DNA of 64,000 nt from Selaginella moellendorffii (taxonomy: Eukaryota > Plantae > Lycopodiophyta): contig NW_003314398.1 in the NCBI RefSeq assembly GCF_000143415.4, forward strand, positions 216,005 through 280,004, written 5' to 3'. The notes beneath the pieces are model-generated. The model searched no databases and was not told the origin of the DNA. It saw only the letters and a program-made list of their open reading frames with translations. Positions 10,852 through 62,259 of the stretch are shown here, piece after piece; positions within the stretch are counted from its first letter, which is position 1, and each line of letters begins with the position of its first letter. Position numbers and translations under genes: made by a program.

Positions 10852-11061
10852 TGTAGTGCACCTTATCTCTCTTCCCTTAAGCCAACTAAAAAAGGGGCAA
10901 AAAGAGCCCTTAATGACTATTTTATTTCCATTTATCCAAAATTCCCATTTATCCAAAATTCCAAGGATCCACGGGTAACAGTATATTCAAATTTCATCTC
11001 ATGATCATATATGCTACACTCAGAGAAAGACCCAAGATGTACAATTTTAAATTTTAGGGGT
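10852..11061 (-). mobile_element. 3' half of a TRIM (3' LTR plus part of internal region) split by transposon copy 1
   Basis: Reverse complement matches the TRIM LTR at 55887-56048 and its internal region at ~56139-56160. Flanked by CTTAT (10847-10851), the rc of the ATAAG TSD at 32791-32795. Confidence 0.85.
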
Positions 11062-11085
11062 AAGCTCTATTTCGTTAAAGTGGGA
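11062..11085 (+). repeat. Terminal inverted repeat, copy 1 left
   Basis: AAGCTCTATTTCGTTAAAGTGGGA; exact rc at 23551-23574. Confidence 0.95.
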
Positions 11086-11492
11086 ATTGTCATTATCCCA
11101 CTTGTAAAATAAGGTTTCCAAACCTTTATATAGTATATAAATATAACAAAATTCAACTGCATTGAGGCACATGCCATTTTATTTTAAACAAGGAAATGTC
11201 TACTCAATCACTTCTCACTGCTTCACCTCTCTCTTCTCCTTGTCATCGTCGTCCAATTTCTTTCCATCCTTTTAATATTGGCTCAGTTGCTCCGAGTCTA
11301 GGTGGAGCCCAAGTCCCCATTCAATCTTTACTTTCCCCTTATTAATAAAACAACTTCGTAAACTTCCAATAACATGCTGTAACACTTCTAGTATAATGCA
11401 AATCCTCTCAAAGAATTGTCTTTTAATATTAATACAATGGCATGGAACCCCATGCCATAATAAGTTACATTTTTAAATAAATACATGCCATC

Positions 11493-14400
11493 TCAGACTG
11501 TTATTTTTTGCCTCCAACGCCTATACAATAATCTTGGAATTTCATCACTCTCCACACTATCAGGATTTAAACCCAATAGTAATGCCATCTCTTCTCTAAT
11601 ACGTCCACGCTCATGTTCAGTGGTCGAAGAACCCATCCGGTTGAGCAGATTATGGAGATGCGGATAGTGCTTGGCTAGACAATATACATGCCATAAATGA
11701 TGACTGGTGTCTGTCCGATCAAATGGCTTCTGATATACCGTTCCATCTGCCATTTGGTTGATTTCTGCAGCCACCTCCTGGACTAGCCGGTTCTCTATCA
11801 CCATCGCTTCAAGCCGTTTTGCAAGGTCCCCCAGAACATACGGTTTCTTCTCCCTAGTTTCCATACTGCAAGAGATGGGGTGCACTGCATATGTGTGCGT
11901 GTTCGCTGCAGTTTTAATCGGCGAGTCATCGATGATGAGGATTTCACTTGACCTAGCAGTCCGGTTCATCACTACAGCCTCTGCCTTGACGAAGATGGGC
12001 TTGCTACCCCTCACATGGACCATAGTCAAGCAATCCTCCTGCGTTAGGAGAAAGTCAAATGGTAATATTACTCGCGTTTGATCGTGCATCATCTGTAGCA
12101 ACGTTAATGCATTGTGGCGCATCATGGATGTCCAAACTCCCAATTGCAAATTGAACCCGGCCCTCTGTTTTAAGTGTCGCATGGTCATTATTAGATCCCG
12201 CAGTTTCTCCCGTGTGATTAATGTGAATCTGTCTCTTTTGACCAACTTGCGACCGCAGGCTTTGGAGGGTGCAGTGACATTCGAGGACGAGCCACGCTCA
12301 TGGGAGAAAAGGACACCGTTCAGATCAAAAACGATACAGTACTTTCGCCGTGACTCTGAAATGAAATGCGTTAGCATAAAAAATGGTATAAGTCAATTTT
12401 ACCATCTACAATATTAGCGAATGGTGCTCCCGATGGTCGTTCAGAGGGTTTTGGTCGAGGAAACGTGAAGGGCGGAAATACTCTCCTCTGCAATGTGGGG
12501 TCAATCGCATCCGATGGCGTGTGGGCACATGCCATTTCAGCTGTAGACTCTGGTACAACTGGCTCAACAGTGGCATGGGGTGGTTCCGATGGCGTGTGAT
12601 CACACGCCATTTCAGCTGGTGCCTCCGTTGGCAAAGTGGACATGACCGAACAGGCAGCAGGGGCGGTGTAGGGAGGTTCCAACGGCGCGTAGTCAGACGA
12701 TTGGGCACACGTTGGAAATGAGGATACGACCGGCTCGGCGGCTGGGGCGGCCTCATGCGGGTCCAATGGCGCCTGGTCACCGTCAGTTGGATACGTGGAC
12801 AAGATTGACTCAGTGGTATGGGCAGCATCAAGTGGAGCGTGGTCAGCTTGCTTGGCGTTGATATGGATAGTAGCCTCCACCAGCTCTGATGACTCTTGCA
12901 GGCAAGTAGAGTCCACTGGCGGATCCATATGCATGTCCAAATATCTCCCTTTGATTGAGATGGTATCCTCCCTACTGGCTACTAAAAACAAACTCATTAG
13001 CACATTGAATCGACTATACTGTATTTACCATCAACTACTATTGAGGAACTAGGACCGATATCACTTGGGCGCACTGCTGATTCTGAAGGATTGGACATAC
13101 GTTTCGACCCTTGCTTGGCACTATCCTTCCTCGACACTAAAGGCTAGAGTTTGTATCTTAATTCAACTGAATAATCTCTACTTACCATTTCTTCTGCGAC
13201 CTACATGGACAATGTTAGAAATGGTAAAAGGTTAGGAATGGATGTACTATTATTTACCTGATGGTTTGTCTTGTATGACCTTCCTCCGCTGCTCTTTGGC
13301 CACCTCAGGCTGGCCATCATCGTCATCATTGTCATCGTCGTTATTGTGATCGTCACCATTGTGAGGACCATCCAAGTCCTCTTCGTCCTCCTCTTCTTCG
13401 TCCTCCTCTTCTTTGTCCTCCTCTTCGTCCTTCTGCTCTTCCTGCTCATTATCTTTCTCTGGCTCCTCATCCCCCTCTTGCATTTCTTCCATAGGCTGCT
13501 CAGGCTGGATGGCTTGTTCTTCCAGGACCATCTTGGGAAAATCATCTGGCCGAGTCTCCATCTCAAAATACAAGACATCCATAGCCTGTTTTAGTGCGTG
13601 ACCTAGGACCGTATCCTCACCCGACTGTCTTAACATGGTTTCTGCACGTTCTTGCACCCTTCGAAGACGACGAGATGAGAAAAACGTGGCCCTTACTTGA
13701 AAAGCATCCCTCATCCATTGTACCTCTCCATTGAGATTGGGGAAGGGGAGTCCGCCATAGGAATCTGAGTCAGGAGGTGGTGACTGGCTACTTTCACTCA
13801 GCCCTTGATCTGCAATGAATGGCATGAGCACACACGCCATAACCGCGAGGCATTACCTATCATCTTTTCGTTGCCCTTCTTCCTTTTCGAATCAAACGCC
13901 TCTGATCCCGACAACTGTCCAACGTGCTTTCGCTTTTTATGACCACTGTCAGTTTGAGCTTGGCTGGTGCTTGCCTGTTTTGCCTTTGAAGAAGTGTCTC
14001 CTGCAAGGAATGGCATGAGACCACACGCCATTGCAAATATAATTTGTACCTCCTTTTTTCCTATTGCTTGTCTGTTTGTCCTTCTTCGACGCACCACCAG
14101 TGCGCTTTTCAGTCCTCGTGTCTGAATATTCACAACGATCTATAATCAAAATGGCGTGAGGCCTCACGTGACCTTACCTTGTGCAGGTTGTGACCTCGGC
14201 CTAACATCAGTAGCTGTTAACGCCGTTTCAGCATCTGGGGGTGGCCACGCTCCTGCATACAGAGCTTGTGAGATAACATTTAAACTTAAAGTGCGTACTC
14301 ACCAGGTTCGTAGAGAAGATACTGTTTTTCTTTGGCAACTGTAATTATATGCTCCATTGAAGTCACCTCTTCAATGGAGTTTGTCACCGCAACACACGGG

Positions 14401-16864
14401 ACACCCTTGAGTAGTGCGGCTCGAAAGAATAGTCCGCCGCAGTTGTACTCGACAACGCATTTGCCCTTGGAGTCACCCGCTATTGCGTTGAAGACCCAGC
14501 TGAGCATTTCCCATGCTGCACCTGGAGCTTTCTTTGGATTCGAAAGCTCCATAGCCGTCTTCAGTTCCTCAGGCACGGGTAAATTGACCTCCCTCAGATC
14601 AATTCGATCGGCTTTGTTGAACGAAGCTGGGAAGTCACTCCAGTCCCACTCTGCTGCAGGACCAATAACAAGGGCGACTGTGAAGATGCGGACATTCGTC
14701 GGTATCTTCTTCTTAGCCATTATCCCATGGATCTCCCGCATCTCCTTGCCTTTCAACCGAGCCTTCACCTCGTTCAAGGCCTTCCAGAACTTGTGATAGG
14801 ATTCGGAGTCGTAGATCATATAGTGGACTGAAAATTCCACCTCCGCAAGTCCCACCATTAAGTCAATGATGGAGCTGACTTCGTCTGCATGAGTGATCTC
14901 CTCGTTTGTGAAGTCCATCACACAAAAGATGTTCTTGACCTGCTCATCTCCGCGGGAAACGATGCTCCTCCACCTTTGATCCTCATCCGAATTCACGTAT
15001 ACCCGGTAAGGTTCTCGATAGGCCTCTGCTGCGGGGTCGAGCTGTTTCTGAAGCCGGCGGTCGACATCCCTCTTAATGAAATTTGGATACTGATCCAACT
15101 TCTCAGCTTTACTTTTCGTGGCATCCTGCAGCAGATCGATGAACTTGGGGGCCCCCTTCACGTACTCGTCGATGTCTTCATTTGACAAGTCCAGCTCTTC
15201 CATCATCTCTTGCGTGGTGTCGATGCTCACCCTCGCCACGGCCACTTGCTCGAAGATCCAATCCTTCAATAGCGCACGAGCTCTCAGAGTCGTGCACAAG
15301 TCCTCGTATGTCACAATATGGCCGGGAGTCATTTTGGTCTTGTTGAAGACTACCTCACCAAGTAGAAGAGCATTAGCCACTGTTAGAAGGTCGTCGTCGT
15401 CTAGAGACCGCGAGAAACGCAAGGCGTTGAGCTTCAAATCATTGGGCTTCCGGCCGTCCTCCACACCCATTGAGTTTAGCAACTCCCCGTCATGGTACCT
15501 CCTTAGCACATCTACCCATTTGTCAAAAACAACTTTTGTCGCGAGTAGAATGTTATGGATGCTGAGTGTGTCATTGACCCCCAGTGTTTTCGAGAGAAGA
15601 CTCGAGAATTCCTGCAATGGAAATGGCGTGAGGCCACATGCTATGCCACATGCAACGAGGCTTACCTGCCAGGCACTAGTTGCTAGTGCACGTCCTTGTC
15701 CTGGTTTTTGTGGCTTCTTCAGTTGAACCCAGAGCTTCCGTGTTCGTGCCAATGTCTCGTGCAGACCCGATTTGTAGCACGTTTCTTGCTTGACATTCTG
15801 CGCGTGGGAGATGTATATGATAGATCGGAGGGGCGAGTTGCCTTTTATCAGGCGGACAACTCTTGTCTTGAAGACTTTCTTCACCTCCTTGCCCACCATA
15901 ATATCCACAACTATCTGTTGCATCGCCAAGCTAGAATGCTGCTCGGAGACGGCATAGAACCGGATGTTCTGATCGTCCAACACCTTCCTATTGATCAAGT
16001 CTGGAAACCTCGTCTCGCCCTTCATTGTTCGGTAGTAGGGGATCATGTCTGCGATGTCGGGTGTTACTGGACTTGCCAGCATCTTCTGCTTCAGTTTCTC
16101 CACCCACTCATCAGATACTAGCCTGTGGTTGTATTTGCTTTGGATGTCGATACGGCTCATGTCGATTGTATATACTTTGTTGGAATAGTAACAAGTACTA
16201 TTATCTGTGACGATTTTTGCTGCCTCTTCTTGCTCTTTCTGCTCTTTGCGGCTCTTCTTTTTGGTGGGTGTAGTGTTCGAACCCGAGGCAATGGCATCAC
16301 CGAGTAGCTTCTTTTTTGGAGCAGCAGAGTCGGACGTCGGCTTGAGCTTGACCACCCTTTTCTGCTTCGGGGTAGTTTCCAGATCGACCCCCTTCCCCTT
16401 CGCTTCGTGAACTGGAGGCACTCTCAACAGCTCAATGTTGGAATATAGTTTTTGAACATCGCCGTAGGTGAGGTCCGTGGATTCCATGTGATCTTCATAG
16501 ACCCGCACGTCTTTGAAATTGTGGGCCTCCTGGACAACCTCTCCCTAGCTCCCTCTAGGAATTCCTCATAGCCGCTGCCCCCCTCCGGGAAGCCGCTAGG
16601 ATGTGCAAGGTGGATCTTAAAGGCGGATGCTGTCTCTACCACAAGTGCCAGTCCATATTCTTGCATGGAACTGCATGGATCGTCTGTCACTTGGATGAGG
16701 ATCCCCATGCATTCTTTTCTCCCACCATCTGTGTTGTACAGCATCAGATCCTCGCCTTCCATCCCGAAAGTCCAACTGGTGAGCTCCTCCCCCTTCTCTG
16801 CATCCACATTGACAGTGGCTGGAAGAAGAACGCAATTCCTTGCCTGTTCAAAAATGCACAACAA
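11493..16864 (-). CDS. Transposon cargo gene, copy 1: spliced multidomain protein (ParB/Srx-like, MTase-like, acidic and Pro-rich linker, FCP1-like HAD phosphatase); 1-nt frameshift near 16508; true start uncertain
   Basis: Exons ~16843-15666, 15611-14303, 14252-14178, 14121-14050, 14000-13857, 13809-13258, 13200-13186, 13136-13029, 12981-12403 and 12355-11493 join in frame via GT-AG introns of 47-57 nt. The last exon has FCP1/NIF-type motifs IVFDLNGVL, GVWTS, KPIFVK and IIDDSPIK. Confidence 0.8.
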
Positions 16865-18309
16865 TTAGAGCTGACAGATGAAAAGCTAGCAGCTGGAAAT
16901 AACGTGAGGCCACACGCCATTCACCACTGCATCAGATGTCTTGAGGCTGCATCCTAAGATGGCATGAGGCTACACGCCATCTGTAACCGGACTGCACTCG
17001 AGAGCCCAATCGGTGCATGCCAATGTTGCTACTGAATGGCATGTGGCCTCATGCCATTTTCTACTTGGCCTAAAAGACTTACCATTTAAAGCCGAATGGA
17101 GGCGTGATAATCGAGGCCAGACTTGCTGGCGAATGTGCACTATGTGTGCAGCGGATCGTAGCAGCAAGGCTACTCTGCCACTTACAGTTGGAGAGTGGCG
17201 CTGAAATCTCCCGGGATGCCAAGTGGGCTGCGTGTGGGTGGCAGAGTGGGCGGCGGAGTTGGCGGCGAAGTTAGAAACTGGGTGTGTCTTGAAGTGGACG
17301 CCGATGCACACGAGCGCGATGCGAGCGCGAGTGTGATGCAAGCGCGAGTGGACGCCGATGCACACGAGAAACCTGTAGAGAAGGTAGATGAGCGCGAATG
17401 TGAGCGTGATCGTGAGTGGGAGCGCGATGCGAGCGCGAGTACGAAGCAAAATGCAAAACCTAACCTCACACGCGCGAAATGTCACGACGGTTGGTAATCC
17501 CGCCATGTCATCATTCCTCGGACTTGGGCGCCACCATTAATTTCTGGATCGTCGCGCGCATGCATGCACGTGAAATCCAAAAGAAATCCACAACGTCATC
17601 ATTCCTCAGATTGCATGCACGTGAAATCCAAAAGAAAGATCATGATTGGGATATCATTTAATACCCTTGCTATATTTATACCATGCATGATTGGATATTC
17701 CAAAGCATCTTGTATTTCCAAAAATGCCAGATGTTCAGCTAAATAAAGAATGGTATACAAAAAATCCCAAAAAATGCACCAAAAAATGCTCGGTGCCATC
17801 TGGCGTTATCTCTTGAATGGCGTGGGGCCGCATGCCATTTTCAGGGGCACATAGGAGTATATTCCTAGAATATTCTGACGCGCGAGATTTTTTTGAGTTT
17901 TTTGGAGATCCAACCGTTAGATCGCAACTAGATTTTACAGAATGGTATAGAATGTCTTTCTTGATGACCCTGCAAAGAAGCATCTCGATCGGACACCACA
18001 TGAGACCACACAAGCCTTACAATGTTTCAGGGCCATTTGCTATAGATCCGACCGTTATTTTGCTCCAAGATTTTACAGTTTGGTGTGCATTGACCTTTCC
18101 ATCGACACTGCAAAGGGACATCACAATCAGATGTTTGATCACAAGAAACTAACTTCACTAACTCTAGTTTCACCAAGATCTACGTAAGGAGTTATGAAAT
18201 GAAAGGACCCTCTCTATTGAAATGTGTTTATGGTCCTAGGGGCATTGTGACATATCAAAGGATTTTGCATCAAGTTCTGTATTTGCATGTTTATCAAGCT
18301 ACTGAATTG

Positions 18310-18336
18310 CTAAACCCTAAACCCTAAACCCTAAAC
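18310..18336 (+). repeat. Short interstitial plant telomere repeat (CCCTAAA)n / telo-box array
   Basis: CTAAACCCTAAACCCTAAACCCTAAAC; one unit longer in copy 2 at 38746-38779. Confidence 0.85.
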
Positions 18337-19311
18337 ATGTGGCAAATGCTGCATGAAGAAAGATGCCCTTTCTGGGCAAATGCTGTAAGAGGCAGATGCC
18401 GAGCAGATGTATCTCAGGCTAGCGAAGGGGACAAACGAAAGCTAGCTATAAACATGATGGGATGCAAATAGATTACTAGGCTAGTCCTGCAAAAATCAAA
18501 AACCATAATTGAAAACATTGAAAATGCAAAAAGAAAGGTTTATAATATTTTTGAATTTTAAGCAACCAAAGGAATGTTAGGGCATGTGTTTGTAAGTTTA
18601 AAAATGCCTCAACCACTTAAATTCCCAAGTAAATAAAGCTGTTTCTATTTTTGGTACAGGTAAACTTTATAGCGTGTGGGCTCATGCAATTTTGAACCCA
18701 AAAATGCACCTAAAAATGCTCGAGTAGCATTATTCTTTGAATGGCGTGTGGCCTTATATTGCCATAAATGGACGTACACACACAGCATAATTATTCCTTT
18801 ACACGGCGAATAATCTTGGCGTGGATCGCTGATATGGCATGGCAAAGTTCGAATCACTGACATGGCACAACTGGATCAAGGCAAGGACATGATGTGACAT
18901 GGTGTTGCGAGCGGCGCTACGAGTAGTTGCGGTGTTGCGAGCGGCACTGTCTTTGGTGTGGCTACCGCTTCCTCTTGATATTCGGCACTTGTGCTTCCTG
19001 GTATGTTCACCATGGAATGGCTTAGGACCACATTTAGAAATGGCATGAGGCCACATGCCATCTTGGGCCCTTGCAATTTCATGGCTAGCGTATTGTCATG
19101 TATGTTTTTACTTGCCTACAGCTGTGTGTATATCAAGATGGCATGAGGCCTCATGCCAATTTTGTGAATGCGAAATTTCACGTGGGTGTCAATAGCATGT
19201 TTGAATAATGGCATGTGGCCTCATGCTATTGAGGTTGTTTGGTATGTTATGATTTAGGCCATTCTCCAATCATTTTTTGTATGGTCTTAACTTCTTTTTT
19301 GCACTTTCAGA

Positions 19312-22300
19312 ATGGCCTTCACGGTTGGGGAAAAGGTTTACATTTTGAATGGTGGGAAAAGAGTTGCAAAAGGGACCCTTGTGTCTATGGATCGGAACTT
19401 TGTTATACACTGTCAAAGGCTTGGGGAAGGCAATGCTGCTGTATCAATAGAGACTGTCTTCGATGGGAATGTGGTTGCTATTGAACGAGGAGAGATGGTC
19501 GTCGGGGTAAATGTTGTTGTTGCCTTGAAAAATCTTCAGAAGAAAGCAGATGTTGGGGACAGCGCAAGTGCGACGCATGTTCCCTCCGTGGATCTTAAGA
19601 ACCGTGCTACATGGATTCAGGCAAAAGTGTTTCTAAACAACCCCGAGGGGGAGGTGGTAGCTGAGGGCTTAGCCACAGTTGTCGATCCAAGAGATGCGGT
19701 TGCTAATCAAGAATTGGGCTGGGATGATATTGGAGTTGCGATTTTAGAGGTTGTTGACACAGAAGAAAACAGTCTGACTATTGGAAGCATTGTGCGGTGG
19801 AAATTGAGGCACTTAGTGTTTGAGAATGTGAAGGATTCACAATCAAACACCACTACAACTGATGACAGAACATCTCTTCATGGGAAAAGAAAGTACACCT
19901 TCCTAAAGCGCAGCCAAAGGGATCTGAGCAACGAACCGAAAAGGCAGAAAATGGCGATGGAGGTTCAAATGGTCTCGACAGTTGCTTGTTGCAAGAGGAG
20001 GTGCTGTCAACATGCTGATTGGGATGCTATTGAAGAGGAGAAAGCAAGATACAAGACATTGTCCTGGAAGGCAGCTCGCAATTTTGTGTATGAGGCATTA
20101 CGGTCATCTGTTGATGCTTCAGAACATCAGGTGGGGGGCATGGTCTTCCAGAGGGGTTTGGTCTGCAAGAAGGCATGGAGAATCATTTATGGAGTCCCTC
20201 GAACCACATTCTACACAATCAAAACTGAGTTCGAGGAACAAAGGGTTCAACAGGCAGTCCATGGGAACGACGGTACGCACAAAACCAGGGGTCATGTTGT
20301 ATATGGAGAGGCAATCTTCAAGAGGTTTGTCGAGACATGTAGCGAGCAGCAACCACATAAAACCCGCCTCTTGGAAGATGGAACACGAGACACCCAACGA
20401 GTTCTCCCTTCCATGTATACCAAGGGGGCCATATTGGAAGATGTGAATCGGGAACTCCAGAGTAATGGCTACAGGAAGCTGAGCCAATCTAGATTTAGTA
20501 GATTGTGGAGCAACAGGTTCAAGGATGTGAGTATAGGAAAGTACTCCAGCTTTTCAAAGTGTGACGAGTGCACTGCTATCAAAATGGCTTTGTCGAAGAA
20601 TTCTTGCAGCGCTCAAGAGCGAGAGACGTTGGTTAGAAGGCGGCTCGACCACAACATCGAGCAGAGAAGCTGCAGGACTGCATATTATCATAACAGGATT
20701 CTCTCCATGGAGAGACCTGACTCTTACCTCTGCATCATCCACGACAAAATGGACCAGAAAAAGACGTGCTTACCTCGACTCAATCCTGCCCCCAAGGCAA
20801 TCTCTTCATCCATGCAGCTGCCTGTGTCTCTGTTTGGCATAATCGCTCATGGGCATGGTGCCCAGAACTATGGGAACTTCTTTGTACCTCTATGTGCAAA
20901 CATGATGATTGCGTCCCTAGCAAAACACTTAAGGTCTCTGCAAAGTGCGCAGACTGAGCTGAACGGCCAACCCTTGCATAAGGCCCTTGTCAATCGAACC
21001 CCATACAGGGTTCAGCTGGAGGAGGAGCAAAGGCTTGCAGTATCGCGTGGGGCCCCATGCCATCCCAGTGAATATGTTGGCCGTCAGATTGTAGGGTTAT
21101 CACGTGAGGCCTCATGCCATTCCGACGAGGCTGGTCGCCCGGTGAATGCACAGCCTCATCCAAACGAAGCAGAATCTCAAGGAAGTTCTTGCGGCCGATG
21201 TGGCCTTCCACCCCATCTTCTGCTCCAAACAGACAATGCTGGCAGTGAGAACAAAAACATGTACGTCTTCGCGTACTTGGCGATGCTTGTTGCCAAAGGC
21301 ATATTTGAAACGGTTACACTTGGCTTTCTCATGGTTGGGCACACTCATGAAGACGTCGATGCCATGTTCAGTCACCTGGCAGAGTCCCTCCGGCGATCCA
21401 ATGTCCTCACCCTCCCACAACTCTACGATGAATTCCAAAATTGCATCAAAGGCACTGTTGAAGCTGCACTTCTGACAGAGGTTCCAGACTTTAAGGGGTT
21501 TGTAAGAGGCTACATCAGGGATGGATCCGAAACGCTGATTGGCCACTCCAAGCCTCTTCAGTTTCATTTCAGCATGCGTGACAGTGCTCCAATGATGAGG
21601 TACAAGATGAGAGAATGGGACACAGTGTGGCTGCCAGTGGACGGCATTGAACTCTTCAAGAGAGATCCCATAACTGGGGAACCTATGATTCCTCAGGGTT
21701 CCCCACGGCCGATGCACCCGGATGGACTCAAAGACCAGGAAAGTATAGTGGCCGGGATTAGACAGCATATTGCCTTCTGGAAGAGGGGGTTGGTGTTTGG
21801 TGGAGAATCCTATTTTCAGAGGTGCAAGCCTTTGCTCGAATACTGGGAGAAGATTATATCTGCTATCCAAAATGGGCCGGTTGTATATGAAGAATTGGAA
21901 GAGTCCTTTTGGCCAGAACCCAGAGCACCAGATAGTAGCGGAACAATGTCCTCTGGAAATGCAGTGACAGATAACGATGTTGAGGATCACTATTGTGGGC
22001 CGAGGAACAAGAAGCCGGATTCAGCATTCAATCCAGTACAGGTCTGCAAAGGAATGGTCGTGCTTGTCAGACCCAGTAATAAAAAACAAATGATATGGGT
22101 GGGGCGCTGCATCACTGATGCAGAGGAGGACGCGGAAACTAACTCCTTCAATGTAACTGTGGAGTGGTTCAAGCCAAGTTCCGGATATACGAAGGATTGC
22201 CTAGAAAAGAGATAGGTGCTGAATCCAAGGGATCCCAGCATGAGCATATCGGTGGATAATGTTGTGCATGGTTGGATGCGGAAGCAGAGTGCCACCATCA

Positions 22301-22441
22301 CCTTGCCAGACCATGCAAGAGATGCAGCAAGAGCATTCATAACTCGGGTTCAAGGTGAGATTCATTAATATTCCTTTACAAAGTTTCTAATGTATTTTAT
22401 TTCAAGGTGAACAATCCGAATCTGAATCAGAGGAGGCTTGA
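19312..22441 (+). CDS. Sola-like DDD transposase, copy 1 (967-aa ORF to TAG at 22213-22215; frame continues to 22354, intron 22355-22406, stop at 22441)
   Basis: CDEC..H zinc motif and the triad motifs IIHDKMDQKKT.LP (20734+), LQTDNAGSENKN (D at 21232) and FLMVGHTHEDVD (21337-21360), resembling Sola-type DN..NKN / GH....D cores. Located inside TIRs. Confidence 0.85.
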
Positions 22442-22656
22442 TATAGTGTGTGAGGTAAAACAAAGATGATGTGACATATGCATTTACCAATCACACGTGC
22501 ATAAATCTAATAATATGGCGTGTGGCCCATATTAATGGCACATAAACCCATATTGTGGGCTTACGTGCTTTATGTACCATCATTCCCTTGCAGCGTGTGT
22601 GTTGGTTTCCTTTTATAACACAACGAACTCCATATTTTAGGGTGAAGAGCGTTCTC

Positions 22657-22914
22657 ATGGCAAGCACAAAATTTGTAAGTGAGGCAGAAAAGGAGACGGA
22701 GAAGGAGATAGGTGAAGATGTAGAATATATAAGTCTTCCAAACTTCCCGTACTATACTCCAGGTGATCATTTTTCTGAACAAACGGCAACATTAACAACT
22801 ATCGAGAACGCCCCAGTAACGTCAGAGACAACAATCCAAAGCAAAACAACTGACCCGGAGAAGGATGATAGTACCGCTGAGAGTACCAAAAAGGAGGTGT
22901 CCACTAGCGCTTAG
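22657..22914 (+). CDS. Small Ser/Thr/Glu-rich ORF of unknown status inside the transposon
   Basis: ATG 22657 to TAG 22914; open in both copies (33712-33969 minus); nearby splice-like sites; no recognisable domain. Confidence 0.25.
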   Translation: MASTKFVSEAEKETEKEIGEDVEYISLPNFPYYTPGDHFSEQTATLTTIENAPVTSETTIQSKTTDPEKDDSTAESTKKEVSTSA

Positions 22915-23550
22915 GCTTATAATGGCGTGTGCCCTCATGCCATTTACTTGATCACCAAATACCTTTTTCCCTTTGCACTAGTATATCTTAATACCGGTCT
23001 GAGAAATAGAATGGCATGTGCCCTCAGGCCTTTTACTAAATCACCTTTGAAAGAAATGCAAGCCTCTATGTTGTAAAAAAAAGGTACTAGAGAAATTCCT
23101 TAATAATATGAATGTTATTTAGTTTCATGAAAATACACTAAGGGTCAAATGAGTTAAATGACTTCTCCAGACTAGCAATGCCTCTTGCTACACCTTCACA
23201 ATTAGATTCATTAGAAAAAGATAACATTGAATAATATCTAAATGTTCTCACCATTAAGTTATATGTCTGGCTAATAGGAATGACGTTCATCTTGGAAAGC
23301 TCACCACACGCTCAATGAACAAACAAATAGTGTGTGCGCGCATGCCATCGCTCTTCTTTAGCTTCAGATTCGGCTTGTTCACCTTGACAATGAGATTTAT
23401 TATACAACTAGATGGACTCAGTCTGGACACAAAGCCACCGCGCTAGTCACCATGCCCCAGATATGTCTAGCCCCTGGACAAAAAACATATAATTTCACGT
23501 CATTTTCAAATACTTGAAAATTTGTACCTAGTCCCATTTTACTGAATAAA

Positions 23551-23574
23551 TCCCACTTTAACGAAATAGAGCTT
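23551..23574 (-). repeat. Terminal inverted repeat, copy 1 right
   Basis: TCCCACTTTAACGAAATAGAGCTT. Confidence 0.95.
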
Positions 23575-26500
23575 TCTTGGATTAAGAGTCATTCTTTCTT
23601 TAGAATGGAAAATTTTCCACAAATTTTCTTAGGCTTTTCTGATGGCTGATCTGTTGATCATTTTGCCCAAAAACCATTCCGTTTTCGTAAGCCACTACAA
23701 ACTAGTGAAGGGGTTGGAGTTGACTTTGGTTAGCTTAAACCTTAGTAGGTAGTTTATATAATGTAGCCCGAAAGGGATGCTACCTTTTGGAGCTAAGGCA
23801 ATTGAGTTGAATAAAGTCTAGAGTTAGTGTAGAAAAGTGGCCATTGCACTTTTCTAAGAAAGGTGACCCTTGTGCCTTTCTTCTGTAGTGTTATGCTTGG
23901 TGGCAGGTTGCACCTTGCAATTTGTTAGACTCTATGAGAGTAGTGAGCTCTCACTGATCTTGACTTGGACTTGGTGGCCCTGCGCCTTGGCTGAGGATAG
24001 TGATGTCCAACTTGGTTGTTTGAAGTTGAGATGTTGGTACCTGTACTATAGCTTTGTCTAAGTGGAGGTTGTATACCGATATGAGTCCATCTCATGGTCT
24101 TCACTTTAGCTTCGACTAAGTGTTAGTTATGTATAGCTAGCCTCTTCAAAGGCATGCTTAGAGCTATTGACTAGACGTGTTGGTGAGCTTATTACAGTTG
24201 AGTTGGATTCGAGTGGTCATTTAGTTTATGCTTGTCAATGAACCTTTATCTTGTATCTGGGGTATTACGTTCATGTTGGACAAGTATATAACTTGATGGC
24301 GCAAGTTTAGTGTTTAGGTCTTGTGAAGGCAAGTTGAAAGGTGATTGTTAGTTGCTTTGCGACTGGTGATTACTTGTAGACTTTGTCAAGGACTTTTGAC
24401 ACTTGCTTCACTCGGTAATAATTTAGCAGTGATGGGTTTGCTTTACTGAATGGTGTTGCGGAGGATCATGTCATTAGGCTTACATAGGCTTTCCATGTTG
24501 GCATATCAATTCTACCTTTGTTGATATCATTTGGTTACATTTAGTTTGTGGTGTTGGATTTCATTGAGTCTTGGCAAGTGTGAGTTAGTTGTAGTCTCGA
24601 CAAGATTGTTTAATAAGGGTTGAGCTCTAGCTTTTCCTTGAAAAGTGATTCAGTTGTGGACTATGCTAACTCTACAAGTGGAAGAGTTAGTGATCGATAT
24701 TGGAAAGTTTGAATCATTATTGGGTTTGAGTTGGAATATATCGATCATTGATGATTCTTCTTGTGCTTGTTATGAAGTGAGTTACGTCTTACTATAGATG
24801 GATTCATGGAGGATCGTTTGGTGATCACTTGTCGAACATAACTTCGTTATGCTTGGCTTTTGGATTGATGCAAACGTGCTCTTCATTAGCTTTGCATTAT
24901 GAAGTTCGGCTTATGGATGTGTTAAGGAAGATATTGTGGGTTGCACTATGATTTCTTCTTTAACATTGAAGTTAGTTCATACAAAGCTTGTGATCATTAT
25001 TAGGCAAGACTTGGCTATAAGCTTCTTCAAGCTTTTGGTTCCTTGAGTTTTCATGCTTATGGTGCATTTGTTATAAGTTGTTGGGGAAGACATTTTAGCT
25101 CATTAGCTTCAATGTTGAAGTTAGTATTTGCATGTGGCAATCATCTAGGATAATTGATTATTCTTGTTTGAAGTTTTGCTTAATTATTGTTGATAAAGAA
25201 TGATTTGCCATTCTTTGCAATGGTGGATTCCTTCTTTAATGATGATTTTGCATATTTTCTTTTGATGGGATGATTGATGATCTTTCATGATGGTTAGTTG
25301 TTCTTTTTGATGGTTTATGGCTTTTCGCAATATCACATGTTCTTTGTGGTTTGCCTTGAATTGGTCTCTTGGGTTTGAGACATCAGTAGGATATTGTTGA
25401 CACTTGCTTAAGCGACTCTAGTTCCTTGGTATTATTGACTGGGATCTATATAGATTAGCTAGTGCAATAATTGGCATGAACGAGTGTTTGTTAGCCATGC
25501 AACATTCATTCTATTCTGTTGATTATTGCTTGAGTTAACTCTGATAGATTGAGGTGTTATTACTTTTGGGTGATACATTCGCGAGCATTTTGTTTGCCAG
25601 TCAATGATACTTTGTGTTCTTTGAGTTATTTTTCGTAAGTTGTTTAGCATACTATCTACCATCTTTAGTAATTAAGTTTTATCATTGAGTTTTTTGCTGA
25701 TACACTTGCTATTGAGTTTTGTTGGATGGTGATTCCTATGTTTACCAATTATGATGATCTTGGTGGTTGCTATACTATAATACTAGTTTATCAGATGATA
25801 ACTTACTTGGAATACTTTTGTGTTCTAATCTAAGCTTTACTCATTGATACTTCAGTCTCTTAAATATCATTGTCTCTGACTTTGATATTGTCCATCTATT
25901 GATCTTGGAACTTGGGCCAGTATAGGCAGACTGGCTTCGGCACTTCGTGTGTATGGTGAAATCTCTAGTCATAGAGTAGCTACTGTCGACTAGTCACATT
26001 ACCCGCCTCTCTGTCGATGTTCCTTATTCCGTTAAAAGGGTGTGACCGTGTAAACAACTCTAACTGCCTGTTTACAGTAGTATATCTAAACCTTACCGAC
26101 GGGTTTGGTTTCTTTGTTTAGGAGGGTTGGGGCCTCTGGCTTCTCTCTCTATGTCCCTGTGGGCAGGGGCGTATCACACTTTTGTAAGCTAGGTGACTCC
26201 CAGAGCAGCAAGGGTGGCTGACTCCGTTGGTCATTTCCTTGTCAGCGACGGCCGGAAGGTGTCTGAGCTGATAGTGCATCCGCGTTAGACAAAGAGGTTG
26301 CCTCCTAACTCATTTAAGTTGGTGCATTTCTCACATAATGTGAATACCGTGAACTTTTTGGGAGTTGTTTCCTTGGCGGTATTCTAGACTCGAGTATGCA
26401 TCGACGAGGACGTCGATCTTCCCTAGGGGGGGAGAGTGTCACGAATGTGACTTCGGGTATTGAAAATTACCTGTCGGCCAGTCCTTACGGATACTCTTAC

Positions 26501-27558
26501 CTTACTACCACGATGGCAGGAGGTCGGTATTGCTGAACCCTTTATCAGTCCCTCTTGTTCAAGTGTTAGTAAATTGGACTTTGCATCTGTACTTGGCCAG
26601 ATGAGCATAAGGACGGAATTCCTAAGTGTCTATTCAGCCAAGCATACTTGGCCTGGCTTTTTAGTTCTCTTTTTCTTTGTCTTGCACTGGCTTGATAAGA
26701 ACCCTCGTGTATTAAGATTGGTCCCTCAATATCACTACATGATAGCTTACTGTGTCTGTACCTTTATGTTAGTCTCATTTCGGTCTCAAATGCTATTTAT
26801 GCAAAGTGTTCAGATTTACTCATTTGGCATATCTACGGAATGTAGAGATTGTCCTGAACACAACAGTGTTCGTCCCTTGCCCAAATTCACAATTTAGGGA
26901 CATTCCATATTTAGTAAGTTTTGAGCTTGTCCCAGAGACTAACTCCTGATACTAAGGGAGGCTTGGGGTGAAAGCCCAAAGAGTGTGTTCCTCAAGGGGG
27001 GGGGGGGGGGGGGGGCTATGGGGGGTTCCAAATGTATAGTAGGGATAGTGGGTAGGTTGGGCATGGCCAACCAACCTGAGGCATAGTCTAGCTCCCGCTT
27101 GCGTGTTTGTCCTTGTTTTGCATCTGGCTTGGGTCTAAGCCCAAGTTCCATTCCATGCTAGCTGGTGGAGTACCCATGTCCTCGCATTAGGCCACCGGTA
27201 TGCCGAAATAGCGCCAGACTTTGTTTGGCTCCGTTTTGCGTGCTGGTCCTGGCATTGGGATGCTGGTTACTCTAGGACTGTTCCAAGTCGCTCCAGATTC
27301 CTATCCCTTCACTCTTTGGGCTTCATGCTCAAGAGTTGCTCCGTGGTTCGGTTCCACCACTCTTTGGCTTCATGCTTGGGAGTTTGGCACTGTTCCTTCA
27401 TTCAGTGGCCCAAGGCCTTAAACCTCGGGTTCCTATGGACACGTGGCATGGACACGTGGCATCTGTCTCGTGGCACAAAGAGGGTTCAGGTTTCGCTTCG
27501 TAGTGTTATCCTATGGTAAATCACCATAGAATAAAGGGTCAAAACCACGTGCACTACA
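23575..27558 (+). mobile_element. 3' part of a non-coding LARD: internal region, PPT (26425-26436) and 3' LTR (26437-27558)
   Basis: AGGGGGGGAGAG PPT then TGTCA...CTACA. Internal region colinear with 52630-54260; no long ORFs. Confidence 0.85.
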
Positions 27559-27694
27559 ACATCATTGCACTTGCAAAGGAGTAAATAGTTAAATAGAAGG
27601 TAGAGAGTATACAATTATCATTCAAGACCTTTTTATGTCTAGACTTTACGAAGTGTAAGGAACATAGGAATGCATATGCTTCTTACAAGCATAT

Positions 27695-29301
27695 TGTGAG
27701 ACACAAAATCCTAGGCCCCAAAGTGGAGCCGGAGGGGCGCCACGTGGTAGTGGCCGAAGCGAAAGCCAAACGAGCGTAACACATTTGGACTAAAAGCTCC
27801 GCCTTGAAAGGTCGAGAGCGGGAGTGGAACTCCCAACAAAGGGCTCGAGGAACAAGCATAAAGAGAGCAATAAGCGAGGCTCCAAAAAGGGACCCGAGAT
27901 GGAGTCCGAGATGGACCCGAGATGAAGCCCGAGATGGAGTCCGAGATGGACCCGAGATGGAGTCCGAGATGGAGTCTGAGATGGAGTCCAAGATGGACCC
28001 GAGATGGAGTCCAAGATGGAGTCCGAGATGGAGTTTGAGATGGATCCGAGATAGAGTCCGAGATGGACCCGAGATGGAGTCCGAGATGGACCCGAGATAG
28101 AGTCCAAGATGGAGTCCGAGATGGAGTCCAAGATGGACCCGAGATGGACCCGAGATGGGACCCGAGATGGACCCGAGATGGACCCGAGATGGAGTCCAAA
28201 GTCGAGACCGGGACTGAGACCGAGACCGGGACCGAGACCAAGACCGAGATCGGGACCGAGACCGGGACCGAGGCCGAGGCCGAGTCCGAGTCCGAGTCCG
28301 AGGCCGAGTCCGAGTTCGAGTCTGAGAGGGTGAAAGCCCAAAGCGTTCGTCTCCCAGACCCTGGGGGGTTTGGTGAGCTCCAAAAGTATAGTAGGGGGAG
28401 GACTGCAGTGGAGCCAGTTTGGCCAGGAAAGGCTAGTTTGGCCCAGGAAGGCCGGACCCAATGTTGGGTGATGAGCTGCCCACTGGGAAGTCCAAGACTA
28501 GAGTGAACACGGACCGACAAGCGGGGTAGCTTGGTGAAGTGTTCAAGAGCCGGCTCTAGTTCCCCCGGGAGATCGACTGGCTGGGTGGCACTACCTACTT
28601 GGATACCTGTCGTGGCTCAACGGAACCTCACTCTAAGCCCATGGCTAGAACACCTAAAAGCGAAAGGCGGGGAAAGTACCCATGAGGCTTGCGTAAGGCC
28701 ACGGTGTTCCGAAATGTTGTCCCAAAGTCCCAGACTATGGAAAGGAAGAGGAGTAGCCCTCTGGTGTGGTGACAAAGGACACGGTCACCCAGTGAGGAAG
28801 TCCCAGAGGACAGTTGGACTTAGAGGTCGGGCCTGCGGGCCTTGATCCAGTGGCAGTGTTGGTGAACACGGCCATCGACAAAGAGGGACTTGGTGGGGAC
28901 CGGAAAAGAGATATTGGGGAAGGTTATTCCCTAAGTCTACGAGCATCCTAAGGATGCTAAAGAGTGGATCTGGGATGATCACTCATCGATGGATGGCCTA
29001 GTCTATGAAAGACAGGATTGTAATGTAGGTGGTGTTGGACCACCGGTGTGACCAAGGTGAATAGGTATGGCCTCAGCGTAACGGGCCGATATGTCGGTGG
29101 TACCTTGGGGTGTCGATCATGGGATCGGACACGTGGAGCACTTAGACCAAGTGCAAAGGTTGAGTGGCAGGGATGCCATTCTCGGGGCTAGCAAGCCCCA
29201 AGTCCTAACTGGGACTTGTGGAGGTTGTGAATGAGACTCCTCCAAGTGGTCGGAGGTGTGGTTAAGTGACTAAAGTAAAATGGAAAAATTAGTCGCTTAC
29301 A
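27695..29301 (+). mobile_element. Solo LTR (1.6 kb) with 5-bp TSD CATAT
   Basis: TG..CA ends with CATAT at 27690-27694 and 29302-29306. The empty site is visible in the paralogous AT-rich repeat near 31310. Orientation not established. Confidence 0.88.
27890..28325 (+). repeat. Minisatellite of 10-12 bp units (CCGAGATGGAGT / CCGAGATGGA) grading into 6-bp GAGACC/GAGTCC units
   Basis: Directly visible tandem repeats; related arrays at 29803-30195, 61200-61300 (rc) and 62265-62422. Confidence 0.9.
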
Positions 29302-29790
29302 CATATATATTACATCTTCATCAACACCTTACACTAGGAATCTAAAATAGACAATCACATACACTATACAAGCCTTAGTATTGTTGAATCATATAAGACT
29401 TTTGGAGCCAACTAGAATTTCCAAGATTATTGATGTTTATTCTCTATCAATAATATAAACTTATTATAATTTATATAATTAATAAAAATAACATATTTTT
29501 TATTTGATATACTTAAGAGTGTTTTTTTTCACAATATTGCTCATAATACTTTGTATCTCTATTTTTGTTTTTACCATCTCAAAAAATATTTCATGGTAGT
29601 TTTTCAGGTGCATGGTGTTGTAGTGTATCACAAGAGCATATGTACTATTATACTGATCGTCAACTTGTTTTCACTAAAGCCAATAAACATAAAAAGCATT
29701 TCTTGAATGTCATAAAATTACAATTTTCTAAAATAAGTAGGAGAGCATTCTTTTTCGTTATACCCTCTATCATTGTTTTTATCTCCAACT

Positions 29791-31173
29791 TGTGATATCC
29801 AAAATGGAGTCCGAGATGGAGTCTGAGATGGAATCCGATATGGATTCGAAATGGACCCAATATGAACCTGAGATGGAGTCCAAGATGGACCCGAGATGGA
29901 GTCCAATAAGGACCTAAGATAGAGTCTGAGATAGAATTAGAGATGGACCTGAGATGGAATCTGAGATGGACCTAAAATGGAGTTTGAGATGGACCTGAGA
30001 TGGAATCTGAGATGGAGTTTGAGATGAACCCGAGATGGAGTTTGAGGTGGACCAAGATGGAATCCGAGGTTGAGTTTGAGGTCGAGGCCGAGACTGAGAC
30101 TGAGACTGAGACCAAGTTCGAGACTAAGACTGAGTCTAAGACTGAGACTGAGATCAAGACCAAGTCCAAGTCTGAGTCCAAGTTTAAGTCTGAGGGTGAA
30201 AGCCCAAAGCGATCATCTCTCAGACCCTAGGGGGTTTGGTGAGCTCCAAAAATATAGTCAGTGGAGCCAGTTTGGCCAGGAAAGGTTAGTGTGACGAAAG
30301 AAGGCTATACCCACGTGGTGGGTAATGATATAATCACTAAGGAGTCCAAGGCTAGAGTGAACATGGACAGACAAGTGGAGTAACTTAGTGAAGTGTTCAA
30401 GAGTTGACTTTAACTCCCCTAGAGATTAAATGGTTAATGCTCTCAATTCAAGTGTGGATGGCACTACCTACTTGAATATCTAGTGTGGCTCATCGAAACC
30501 TCTCTCTAGCCACATGACTAGGGCACCCAAAGGCGGAAGGTGGGGAGAGTACCCATGAGGCTTGCATAGAGCCACAGTGTTTCGAAAGTTCCAATGCCAT
30601 CCCAAAGTCTCGGACTGTGGAAAGGAAGAAGAATAATCTTTTTATGTAGTGATTAAAGATACGGTCACATGGTGAGGAAGTCCTAGAGGTCAGTGGGACT
30701 TAGTGGTTAGGCCTTCAAGCTTTGACCCAATAGCAGTGTTAGCGAGCATGGTCGTGGATAAGGACTTGGTGGGAACTGAAGAAAGGACATTGAGGAAGAG
30801 TGTTCCCTTTGTCTTCAAGCATTTTAAAGATGTTAATGTGTGGTCATGGGATGACTTTATGGACAAATAGCCCAATCTTTGAGAGATGGGACTGTGATGT
30901 AGGTGGTGTTGGACCACTGATGTGACAAAGTGAATGGGCATGGCTTTAGCATAACAAATTGATATGTTCATAATACCTTTGGGTTAGTCATGGGATTAGA
31001 CATATGGAGCACTTGAACCAAATGCAAAGGTTGAATGGCATAAATGCCATTTTCGGGGTTAATATATCCCCAAGTTGGGAATAATACTTATGAAGGTGAT
31101 AAGTGAGATTCTTCCATGTGGTCAAAAGTGGGGTTAAATGACTAAAGTAAAATAAAAAATATAGTCACTTACA
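29791..31173 (+). mobile_element. Older, 5'-deleted copy of the same LTR family as 27695-29301
   Basis: Colinear homology with many C>T/G>A changes; ends in AGTCACTTACA; no matching TSD. Confidence 0.8.
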
Positions 31174-31179
31174 GTATAT

Positions 31180-32720
31180 TACTACATTTACAAATAAGTA
31201 TATAGTCAAAATAAAAGGTGGAAAGTACATAATTGTTATTCAAGAGTTTCCTTCTTTTATATATTTAAACTACCAAGCATAAGGAATATAGGAAGGCATA
31301 TTCTGATTACAAACATATATATTAGATCTTTATCAACACCTTATACTAGAATTTTAAAGTGGATATTTATATACATCATGCAATCCTTACTATTGCTAAA
31401 TTATAAAAGACTTTTAGAGCTAATTAGATTTTTCAAGAGTATTGATGTTTATTTTCAACTAATAATATAAAATTTTTATACTTTATATAATTTATTAAAA
31501 AGCATACTTTCCAATTCATATACTTGTGAGAGTTTTCCTTTTGGAATACTGCCTATAACACTCATATGTCTCTATTTCTATCTTTACCATCTCAAAAAAA
31601 AATTCATAATAGTCTTTGGGGGTGAAATATTATAATATGTTATGAAAGCATATATATTGTTATACTAATTGTTCCCATTATTTCCACTAGAAGATAAAAA
31701 AAATAGAGCATTTTTTAAAAGTCATGGAATTGCAATTCTCTAAAATAAGTAAAAGGACATTTTTCCTATACCTAGGTTGTTGTACCTTTTGTTATTGCAT
31801 CTATCTTAAACTTATATTTATTATCCTTTTTTCCTTTTTTTTGTATGATTTAATTGTATTATGCAATGGAATAGCTATTGCAACTTCTGACCCTTAAATT
31901 ACTACACTGGGAAGAAAAATTGCAATGTAAACTCCTATCCAATGTTGGATCTAAGAACTCTTTGATATTAAATGTAAACTCCTAAATTTGTACTTTCTAG
32001 GAGGTCACTTAATTTAGTACTATTCAAACTTAAAGACTCTTAACCCCAACTATCTCAAGACTCTTAACCAATTGGAAAAATAGGTACACTCTTAGTTATG
32101 GGCTCTTTCTCTTTATATTTAAACCTTTATAAATTATACTTCGAATCATTCCTTTTGGTTATTTACATGCAAAAGTTAATATTACCAACACCAGAACTCA
32201 TGAATATTTGTGTATATTTCTCTTTTAATGAGATTATAAATAAAAATCTATAAATTTTAGACATTATATTATGACAAACCCCTCAAAAATATATTTTAGG
32301 AAAGAACCAAGTCTCTCTTTTATATGTAACAAGTTTACATTAATAATTTGTTTTCTTTCAAACAGTTATAAAAGAATCTTATTTCAAATTTATTAATATT
32401 TAAATCATGATAAATATAATATTTAAAAGTTAGAAAACAAATAGTATAGATTTAAGAAAGTAATAAAGTTATTTTTTGTGCAAAAAAAATCTTATTTTAT
32501 ATTATATTCTAACAAACCTCCATATTATGGCATATAATAAATATTTAAATTCTTGGATAAGAAGTGTCATCCAGAAAAATTTTATCTATATAAAGTGTAG
32601 AGAGTTGTAAAAATATTAGGTTCACTATAAACCTTAATTTTATGAATTTATAATGTTTGTATAATACTATAATTGAAAATTGAGCTCAACTCGTAAGCTT
32701 AAATCTTCATCTTGTGAACT
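31180..32720. repeat. AT-rich dispersed repeat of unknown class
   Basis: Homologous to 27570-27694 + 29302-29790 and to ~50990-51970. Confidence 0.6.
31926..32167 (-). mobile_element. Internally deleted, decayed Cassandra-type TRIM with TGCAA TSD
   Basis: 31973-32167 is the rc of the 5S-bearing LTR at 54315-54509, followed by a degenerate PBS and a last LTR tip (31926-31935). TGCAA at 31921-31925 and 32168-32172; empty site near 51458. Confidence 0.75.
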
Positions 32721-32795
32721 CAAGAATGGCTTGCACTCTTTGTGATGAAATGGTGAATAGTTGATAAATCTTATTTTGGCTCATTCATATATAAG

Positions 32796-33051
32796 TGTAA
32801 CGCATATGATCATGGAATAAGATTTGGATATATTGTTACTGTGAATCTTTGGAACTTTAGAGGATAAATGGGGATAAAATAGCCACTAAAGGCTTTTTTA
32901 TCAAGCAATTGCCCCTTTTCTAGTTGGCTTAAGGGGAGAGAGATAAAGTGTGTTATATGTGGTATCGGAACAAATGGTACAGGTTCGATTCCTATTGATT
33001 AGTGGCTAATTAAAAATATAATATACCCTTGAGCAAAGTATATTTCTACCC
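32796..33051 (+). mobile_element. 5' half of the split TRIM (5' LTR, PBS, internal region)
   Basis: Matches 55887-56142; PBS TGGTATCGGA; preceded by TSD ATAAG; ends in ACCC at the TIR. Confidence 0.85.
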
Positions 33052-37100: not shown

Positions 37101-37323
37101 GAAGATTTTTCAAGGCAACAACAACATTTACCCCAACGACCATCTCTCGTTCAATAGCAACCACATTCCCATCGAAGACAGTCTCTACTGATACAGCAGC
37201 ATTGCCTTCCCCAAGCCTTTCACAGTGTATAACAAAGTTCCGATCCATAGACACAAGGGTCCCTTTTGCAACTCTCTTCCCACCATTCAAAATGTAAACC
37301 TTTTCCCCAACCCTGAAGGCCAT
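34185..37323 (-). CDS. Sola-like DDD transposase, copy 2 (970-aa ORF 37323-34411, partly in N gap)
   Basis: Same motifs as copy 1; retains VPLWGGGGANM where copy 1 has a 12-nt deletion; same TAG at 34411-34413. Confidence 0.85.
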
Positions 37324-38745: not shown

Positions 38746-38779
38746 GTTTAGGGTTTAGGGTTTAGGGTTTAGGGTTTAG
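38746..38779 (-). repeat. (TTTAGGG)n interstitial telomere-like repeat
   Basis: GTTTAGGGTTTAGGGTTTAGGGTTTAGGGTTTAG. Confidence 0.85.
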
Positions 38780-59680: not shown

Positions 59681-59689
59681 GAACGCATC

Positions 59690-62212: not shown

Positions 62213-62259
62213 TTCATTATCAGGAATACATGCATTTTACCTTTGGGTCAACTTAGAGG

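Follow-up and report, generated by a model that had tools for sequence, protein, structure and literature searches.

A 22-bp palindrome dispersed through a DNA transposon of Selaginella moellendorffii and its candidate binding proteins

The 64-kb stretch of Selaginella moellendorffii contig NW_003314398.1 analysed here (hereafter the window) carries two copies of a DNA transposon with terminal inverted repeats (TIRs). A 22-bp palindrome, ATGGCRTG-N6-CAYGCCAT, is a real feature of this DNA and is restricted to the two element copies. We consider it a likely tag by which a transposon protein recognises its own copies. Some protein encoded by the element, either its transposase or a ParB-like accessory protein, probably binds the palindrome. 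Our tentative choice is the transposase, a dimer of which would use this family-specific site to recognise and activate the copies of its family. As the multi-copy dyad is confined to the element, avoids coding DNA and changes with the transposon family, the pattern is what a site for a dimeric protein encoded by the element itself would be expected to show.

Occurrence and form of the palindrome

The palindrome was found in 19 exact copies in the window and in none of 100 shuffles. With up to two mismatches allowed, 39 copies compare with a shuffle mean of 0.11. Ten of the exact copies lie at 11437-22943 in copy 1 of the element and nine at 33683-45983 in copy 2, which is inverted. A preliminary description of this DNA had given the range as 11437..23348; the copies are there, but the one ending at 23348 has two mismatches, and the second, inverted copy of the element also carries sites. 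That description saw no full copies in the flanks, and we likewise found no true copy in the 36,911 non-N bases outside both element copies. A scan of the same bases with the CpG left free returned just two unrelated matches with two mismatches, and the 9-bp half-site occurs 64 times within the element copies versus five times outside.

When pairs of half-sites were counted at spacings from -7 to 25 bp, 15 pairs per copy fell at 6 bp and at most two at every other spacing, which confirms the fixed 6-bp spacing first reported. The six spacers quoted at that time (AGGCCT, TGGCCT, TGATCA, GAACCC, AGCACA and TGCCCT) are all present. They do not vary freely, however: 18 of the 21 sites of copy 1 have G at spacer position 2 and C at position 5, and the central bases are mostly GC. 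The refined site, approximately ATGGCRTG-W-G-SS-C-W-CAYGCCAT, is longer than first described. The sequences flanking the palindromes in the window are mostly unrelated (a mean of 10.7 matches in 40, and 24 for the best pair), and tandem slippage was rejected as the source of the window copies. The orientation varies among the window copies, and the spacing is invariant. The unrelated flanks, the fixed spacing and the avoidance of coding DNA support the earlier preference for a dimeric protein site over slippage.

The CpG of the arms shows nearly always the same one of its two decay states, with GGCATG common and GGTGTG-type variants rare, as the first reading of the sequence had suggested. The 21 sites in copy 1 have 42 arms, of which 41 carry C at position 5 and one carries T. 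At position 6, 24 arms carry A, 17 carry G and one carries C, so that the CA and TG states stand at a motif-specific 24:1. Non-motif CpGs differ symmetrically between the two copies (30 of 459 at the C, 25 of 460 at the G), with 16 of 233 decayed in GCG context and 13 of 226 in ACG context. Neutral context does not explain the asymmetry of the motif, because other CpGs differ symmetrically and GCG decays as often as ACG. The comparison of motif with non-motif CpGs gives a Fisher p of 6e-6, in which the arms are not independent events, and an equal asymmetry at non-motif CpGs was not seen between the two copies.

It is fair to infer from these counts that the C is under selection, but the A and G states seem to be settled features of the family and not the product of ongoing decay. 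In the one stretch examined in run X1, G at 16964 makes up 99% of the depth and no other variant reaches 1% in six arms, although contigs lose rare variants. Few variants of at least 1% represent CA versus TG polymorphism among family copies (three runs, one sample). Since the window copies split, one arm has decayed to CA and one to TG. The simplest reading is that the site needs C5 and tolerates a purine at position 6, and that arms were filtered accordingly in lineages that transpose; donors with A that were copied could add to the CA excess. Transition rates between the copies fall in the order CG > CHG > CHH, and both copies carry inactivating changes and evidently were methylated. Together with plant telomere repeats and the retrotransposon flanks, this order of rates points to a land plant as host.

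The element encodes two divergent genes, a DUF7869 transposase gene on the plus strand (19312..22368) and a predicted accessory gene on the minus strand (11493..17085). Of the 23 palindromes of copy 1, a set that includes degenerate sites chosen by eye, introns contain seven, the rest of the non-coding DNA 12 and coding DNA four. Coding DNA makes up 7,970 of the 12,513 bp of the copy (64%), and a share of 4 in 23 corresponds to a binomial p of 7e-6. The predicted introns hold their seven sites in 680 bp, and five of the ten introns contain one. At one end, the palindromes at 11156 (degenerate) and 11437 (11156..11458) lie 3' of the accessory gene. The pair at 12514 and 12589 (12514..12610) is locally duplicated and falls in the exon of a Pro/Ala-rich linker. 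Those at 13819, 14010 and 14151 (13819..14172) are found one per predicted intron in three introns of 38-49 nt, another (15623..15644) in the 54-nt intron after the ParB exon, and those at 16899, 16959 and 17036 (16899..17057) in predicted intron 1. Six more, at 17817, 18669, 18741 (one arm), 19040, 19138 and 19208 (17817..19229), lie between the divergent genes and are densest directly upstream of the transposase ATG. The remaining two coding sites, 21042 and 21099 (21042..21120), occupy a length-variable insertion of the transposase catalytic domain, and the palindromes at 22515 (one arm), 22922, 23011 and 23327 (22515..23348) lie 3' of the transposase. Copy 2 has 20 counterparts with at most two mismatches to the refined pattern (33278..46264). 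An origin of introns from palindromes was rejected in the case of 15665-15612, because distant homologs have an intron at the same place, a comparison of intron position and not of intron DNA.

Palindromes of related transposons

Eighty related loci were fetched via the transposase, and 73 of them were placed in a tree, seven being left out for short cores. Fifteen of the 73 hold at least five copies of one palindrome, and Markov resamples gave at most three copies (3 resamples per sequence, 16 selected sequences). Further loci have three or four copies, or a 12-bp core that is common to 32 loci (30 in one clade and two outside the tree); resamples of four loci gave means of 0-0.3 copies of this core, with a maximum of 3. 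The palindromes of the relatives are about 12-28 bp long. The majority of arrays are located 1-2.6 kb upstream of the transposase core, additional copies occur in apparent transposase introns and downstream, and the copy inside the transposase gene of L044 and L055 falls in an apparent intron. Both of two later-fetched loci also have a palindrome of their own, in 13 and 5 copies, on both sides of the gene.

Related palindromes were found in sister transposases (L033/L037/L038/L045, L044/L055/L069, L026/L063 and L002/L004). Between sister families the two arms have changed symmetrically, and distant clades have unrelated palindromes. Twelve of 13 patterns match, with at least two copies, their own clade only, and the L025 pattern matched nothing. 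As far as the compared sequences go, the palindromes of relatives track the transposase tree. Putative helix-turn-helix (HTH) helices of the transposases are near-identical within clades and different between clades.

Locus L038 seems to hold a complete element of 7.1 kb with seven palindromes. The right end of this element is common to L037 and L033, and an inverted copy of it at 1782 would be the left end. From there to the transposase no open reading frame of more than 128 codons was found, which would leave no room for an accessory gene. In a TIR search over 35 loci, limited to those with flanks of more than 50 bp, no pair of ends had an evident target duplication. The 28-30-bp spaced palindromes that form arrays at 20659-21497 of L036 and 5697-6308 of L039 lie 4-9 kb away from the transposase and may be part of other elements. 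Loci L081 and L082, from bacterial genome bins, contain this transposase family in eukaryote-like surroundings and are probably mis-binned plant DNA. No relatives were found in viral contigs.

Candidate binding proteins and rival explanations

The transposase shows two HTH-like segments (assigned by eye), a CxxC motif and the series HDKMD...DN...GHTHED. HDKMD is invariant in 12 of 12 aligned transposase sequences, DN and GHTHED are conserved in 11 of 12, and the catalytic residues are presumably among these. Pfam finds only DUF7869 on the window transposase and no Mutator-type transposase. The tandem TNP1/DUF8039-like domains at its N-terminus are weak: the TNP1 match (PF03017) has an E value of 0.026 and 14.8 bits, under the 21-bit cut-off, and PF26133 is a precomputed annotation on four of 11 homologs. 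Both copies have an in-frame TAG at 22213-22215, after which the frame runs 50 codons further, and copy 1 is without 12 bp at 20893 relative to other family copies.

We favour the transposase over the ParB-like protein because L038 is apparently complete and has seven sites without a ParB gene, and because there are transposases that activate elements in a sequence-specific way (bioRxiv 10.64898/2026.08.24.746577). One subunit would read each half-site, ATGGCRTG plus the G two bases further in. C5 would be required, and position 6 would tolerate the A that arises from methyl-C deamination of the opposite strand. Lineages with CA arms would then survive and those with TG arms would be lost, and new sites would be retained where they are cost-free, in introns, untranslated regions and disordered loops. 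Binding might counter silencing or activate the divergent promoters, in the manner of VANC, TnpA and the AtMu1 transposase; this is the least certain step, and binding could alternatively serve transpososome assembly only.

Several points weigh against this choice. We infer the binding of the palindrome by the transposase from sequence patterns. The association of the two arises by construction, the loci having been fetched with the transposase, and the same tree would be traced by any other gene carried on the element; the tree itself is a quick IQ-TREE result rather than a finished search. For the TIR, in which the half-site is missing, the transposase would have to possess another specificity. 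The left end of L038 is unproven in that matching target duplications are missing there, and a ParB gene could act on this element in trans. In the same scan 58 of the 73 loci had fewer than five copies, many being short, decayed or redundant, and the arrays of L036 (9 kb downstream) and L035 (AT-rich) are possibly foreign to the element. Lower deamination near the sites was not found in the two window copies. CG differences numbered 3 of 63 within 25 bp of a site, then 12 of 153, 12 of 232 and 23 of 314 with increasing distance, and 5 of 157 beyond 500 bp, which lends no support to the idea that sites protect nearby CpGs in these copies.

The ParB-fold accessory protein, which we rate as less likely than the transposase, comes close to it as a candidate. 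Inverted repeats are bound by proteins of the ParB family, and the idea has been proposed for algal elements. The palindrome would then be a parS-like loading site for a dimer of this protein, which would possibly spread and mark or shield the element via methyltransferase-like and phosphatase-like domains. The predicted gene has 11 exons and 1637 codons and rests on a gene model together with fold, atlas and NIF matches. Its protein is predicted to comprise a ParB/Srx-fold domain, a helical domain, a degenerate N4/N6-methyltransferase-like region, an acidic disordered linker and a NIF (HAD) domain, in this order. The ten GT-AG introns of the model were picked by eye. A 1-nt frameshift in copy 1 near 16507, where 1 bp is lost relative to other family copies, was marked with N. 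The intron at 15665-15612 is backed by a gap in homolog P0057 and by homolog reading frames that end or begin at that point; the other introns rest on GT-AG sites, a single open frame and homologs. No splice joints were seen in run X20 (guessed to be RNA), and predicted intron sequence was covered there. Nine of the ten predicted introns (12356-15665, minus strand) measure merely 38-57 nt, which is short for a land plant.

Word-based searches found zero and one homologs of the accessory protein and HMMER found nine; the HMMER matches P0058 and P0061 were dropped as low-complexity. A model built from nine sequences has a mean pLDDT of 54, compared with 33 for a single-sequence model. When its residues 16-149 were compared with 48,161 chains, all eight matches with a Z of at least 5 had the ParB/Srx fold, among them PadC (Z 7.2, rmsd 2.9, 97 aligned) and KorB (6.5). 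The top rows of Foldseek for the N-terminus were Noc, ParB and PadC (E 0.03-0.2), and an atlas match of this region gave DUF3723 at 0.97. According to the model, the N-terminal domain has the ParB/Srx fold, with the caution that a structural Z below 8 calls for. The helical domain that follows gave no HTH match in the model, Foldseek or the structure comparison, at the mean pLDDT of 54. The motif GxxRxxA, which we take to be the arginine patch of ParB for CTP, is not kept and reads SGQHS in copy 2 and four homologs and SEQHS in copy 1.

The methyltransferase-like region matches PF01555 in the atlas at only 0.80 and 0.79, the model falls below a pLDDT of 50 there, and its VEY.CGG segment, considered for a C-terminal SAM-binding motif, is common to P0057. 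In place of (D/N/S)PP(Y/F), the catalytic motif of beta-class N4C/N6A methyltransferases, it reads MDFT, as matched by eye. A published account names TSPPY as a methyltransferase motif (bioRxiv 10.1101/2021.02.12.428880). We treat this degenerate region as a lead only. The last exon (11493-12377, minus strand) encodes a NIF/HAD phosphatase-like domain by Pfam, as does L077 at 69-329 (minus strand). The second Asp of DxDxT, presumably the HAD motif, is missing in the accessory protein (FDLNG), and the domain may be catalytically inactive. No Pfam family other than NIF was found on the accessory exons, and PDB sequence searches, PHROGs and NCBIfam gave no matches.

Beyond the fold, the ParB-like protein as binder is supported by the sites that run through the introns of its own gene and by algal Sola1-1 and Plavaka elements with ParB genes (PMC12477816; bioRxiv 10.1101/2025.02.11.637652). 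Decayed accessory homologs also adjoin the transposase in L030 and L077; L077 keeps the same divergent gene order with NIF last, and L030 has 18 palindromes over both genes. However, these are the only two of 82 loci in which the gene was seen. No ParB homolog was detected in the 5-10 kb that lie upstream of L038, L044 and L011 or in L081, with weak profiles that each missed one of two known cases. That no HTH was identified in the model and that the arginine patch and PPY motif are replaced also speak against it, and the half-site-free TIR and the undiminished CpG decay near the sites count against this protein as they do against the transposase. The fuller version, in which a bacterial-type ParB clamp loads at parS-like palindromes, spreads, marks the element against silencing and co-diverges with its sites across a land-plant Sola1-like clade, appears more doubtful still.

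That the palindrome acts as a structure, folding as a cruciform in DNA or as a hairpin in the RNA of short introns and affecting splicing, small RNAs or transposition, seems improbable to us. Perfect copies do fold at -9.5 kcal/mol as DNA (z -4.7), two introns of 47-49 nt fold around their site (z -1.7), and sister families show symmetric two-arm changes. However, an A-C mismatch on one strand reduces the energy to between -2.8 and -3.2 kcal/mol in 11 of 20 sites, none of five intron stretches folds beyond z -1.8, and Rfam gave no match. Position 6 of the two arms combines as 3 GG, 11 mixed and 6 AA against an expected 3.6, 9.8 and 6.6 (p 0.58), and spacer positions 1 and 6 pair in seven of 21 sites against 7.4 by chance. 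Because the arms vary independently and these spacer positions pair at chance, the hairpin offered earlier as an alternative is disfavoured; it is the sequence that is conserved, and not pairing alone.

Slightly less probable is that the element gathered sites of a host transcription factor for its expression. The sites are densest between the divergent promoters, and telomere-type boxes upstream of the transposase were noted too, with 13 of 80 loci concerned. On the other side, the 36.9 kb of flank contain no copy, and palindromes that are unrelated between families and related in sisters fit co-evolution with an element protein better than they fit an unchanging host factor. The least probable reading is that local duplication, template switching or gene conversion produced the palindromes as neutral by-products, which persisted wherever they did no damage. 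The 12514/12589 duplication and tandem arrays of the own palindrome in L033, L037, L026 and L081 can be cited for it, but the mostly unrelated window flanks with varying orientation and invariant spacing, a C5 retained in nearly every arm while other CpGs decay symmetrically, and the recurrence of the pattern across many clades speak against it.

Element structure and known systems

Copy 1 (11062..23574, plus strand, 12,513 bp) was delimited by self-BLAST, TIRs and Pfam. Copy 2 (33052..46358, minus strand), delimited by self-BLAST and TIRs, is locally duplicated near 38-39.6 kb and interrupted by three N gaps, and the two are 98-99% identical across most of their length. An identical 24-bp TIR is present at all four ends, with the termini AAGC...GCTT; in copy 1 it lies at 11062..11085 (plus) and 23551..23574 (minus). 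Neither copy is flanked by its own matching target duplication. The 4-bp GGGT at 11058..11061 has its partner at the right end of copy 2 (33048-33051, ACCC on the plus strand), and TCTT at 23575..23578 has its partner at the left end of copy 2 (46359-46362, AAGA on the plus strand). Because the duplications are swapped between the copies, the 9.5-kb segment between them (23575..33051) would be inverted, either truly, by recombination between the copies, or through mis-scaffolding. In run X1, 58,715 contigs align to the element, which therefore represents a repeat family, with depth being no measure of copy number.

The element is a TIR DNA transposon and probably belongs to Sola1. The link of DUF7869 to Sola1 and the Sola1 motifs are taken as background here, and the Sola1 label is provisional. 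The 4-bp target duplication, the TIRs and the DDD-type motifs of the transposase are Sola traits. The Sola superfamily is described as having a DDD-type transposase, a 4-bp duplication and variable TIRs, and as present in moss and rare in flowering plants; this passage mentions neither dispersed palindromes nor an accessory gene (PMC10741241). Dispersed family-specific palindromes in plant Sola elements were not found described in the literature searched, which covered main texts but few subscription papers or Repbase Reports. The termini AAGC...GCTT and the 4-bp duplication differ from the CACTA termini and 3-bp duplication of CACTA elements.

The sites of bacterial ParB/parS, Noc/NBS and KorB operators are multi-copy dyads of similar length, read by proteins with the ParB/Srx fold. 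Unlike those systems, the element has no ParA, no demonstrated HTH and no kept arginine patch, and its gene is eukaryotic and contains introns. In Arabidopsis, VANC provides anti-silencing of VANDAL elements through short family-specific motifs in introns, intergenic and terminal non-coding parts, which differ between related families (PMC5735166). The element resembles them as a large transposon with an accessory gene and family-specific motifs gathered in non-coding DNA (19 of 23 sites). VANDAL elements, however, are Mutator-like with 8-9-bp non-palindromic motifs in tandem repeats (PMC5735166), whereas ours combines a DUF7869 transposase, TIRs and a 4-bp duplication with a mostly dispersed 22-bp dyad; a Pfam domain of VANC type was not found in it.

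Clustered family-specific motifs bound by an element-encoded protein are also known from Spm/CACTA TnpA and from AtMu1, whose transposase binds and activates cognate copies, so that a transposase alone can suffice (bioRxiv 10.64898/2026.08.24.746577). The weak TNP1 match and the two HTH-like segments recall these proteins, but TnpA and AtMu1 bind termini, whereas the sites described here span the whole element and spare the TIR. The algal elements offer a further comparison. Sola1-1_Ec32 of Ectocarpus has an opposite-strand gene for ParB plus an N4/N6 methyltransferase (PMC12477816), and Plavaka PAG3 of Bostrychia has inverted-repeat arrays beside a ParB gene (bioRxiv 10.1101/2025.02.11.637652). 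These too are giant DNA transposons with a ParB-like accessory gene, for which binding or modification of self DNA is only proposed. The string "palindrom" is absent from the main texts of both papers, whose supplements may describe such repeats. In contrast to them, the present element comes from a land plant, has a predicted extra NIF domain and degenerate methyltransferase motifs, and carries a defined dyad dispersed through introns; its relatives show palindromes where no ParB gene was found.

The element is neither VANDAL nor CACTA and would represent, by analogy, a variant of transposon self-recognition. In flowering plants, VANC, TnpA and AtMu1 are established cases in which transposons recognise themselves by sequence, and algal ParB-type proteins are only proposed to do so. 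The element offers a precise 22-bp candidate site, two candidate proteins and a natural C5T variant with which binding is expected to be lost, and some dozen of its relatives have different sites. If the reading is true, self-recognition would also exist in another superfamily and probably outside the flowering plants, with a set of protein-site pairs of differing specificity.

A short tract of the plant telomere repeat lies between the two genes, at 18310..18336 in copy 1 (plus strand) and 38746-38779 in copy 2. At least two telomere-repeat units occur in 13 of 80 loci (L035, L036, L037, L038, L039, L041, L044, L046, L068, L073, L074, L076 and L077), 12 of them with the units upstream of the transposase, a count made without a chance control. 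Near the predicted accessory promoter, at 17530-17630, is a self-complementary stretch of the TGCATGCACGTG type in two copies, which we presume to resemble G-box/RY elements. Retrotransposon-like flanks of the window encode RT/RNase H (58309-59169), gag (59663-60184) and SH3/chromodomain (61790-62212) domains, and such flanks contain arrays of 6-, 12- and 23-bp units of the CCGAGATGGAGT type at 27890-30194 and 61196-62421.

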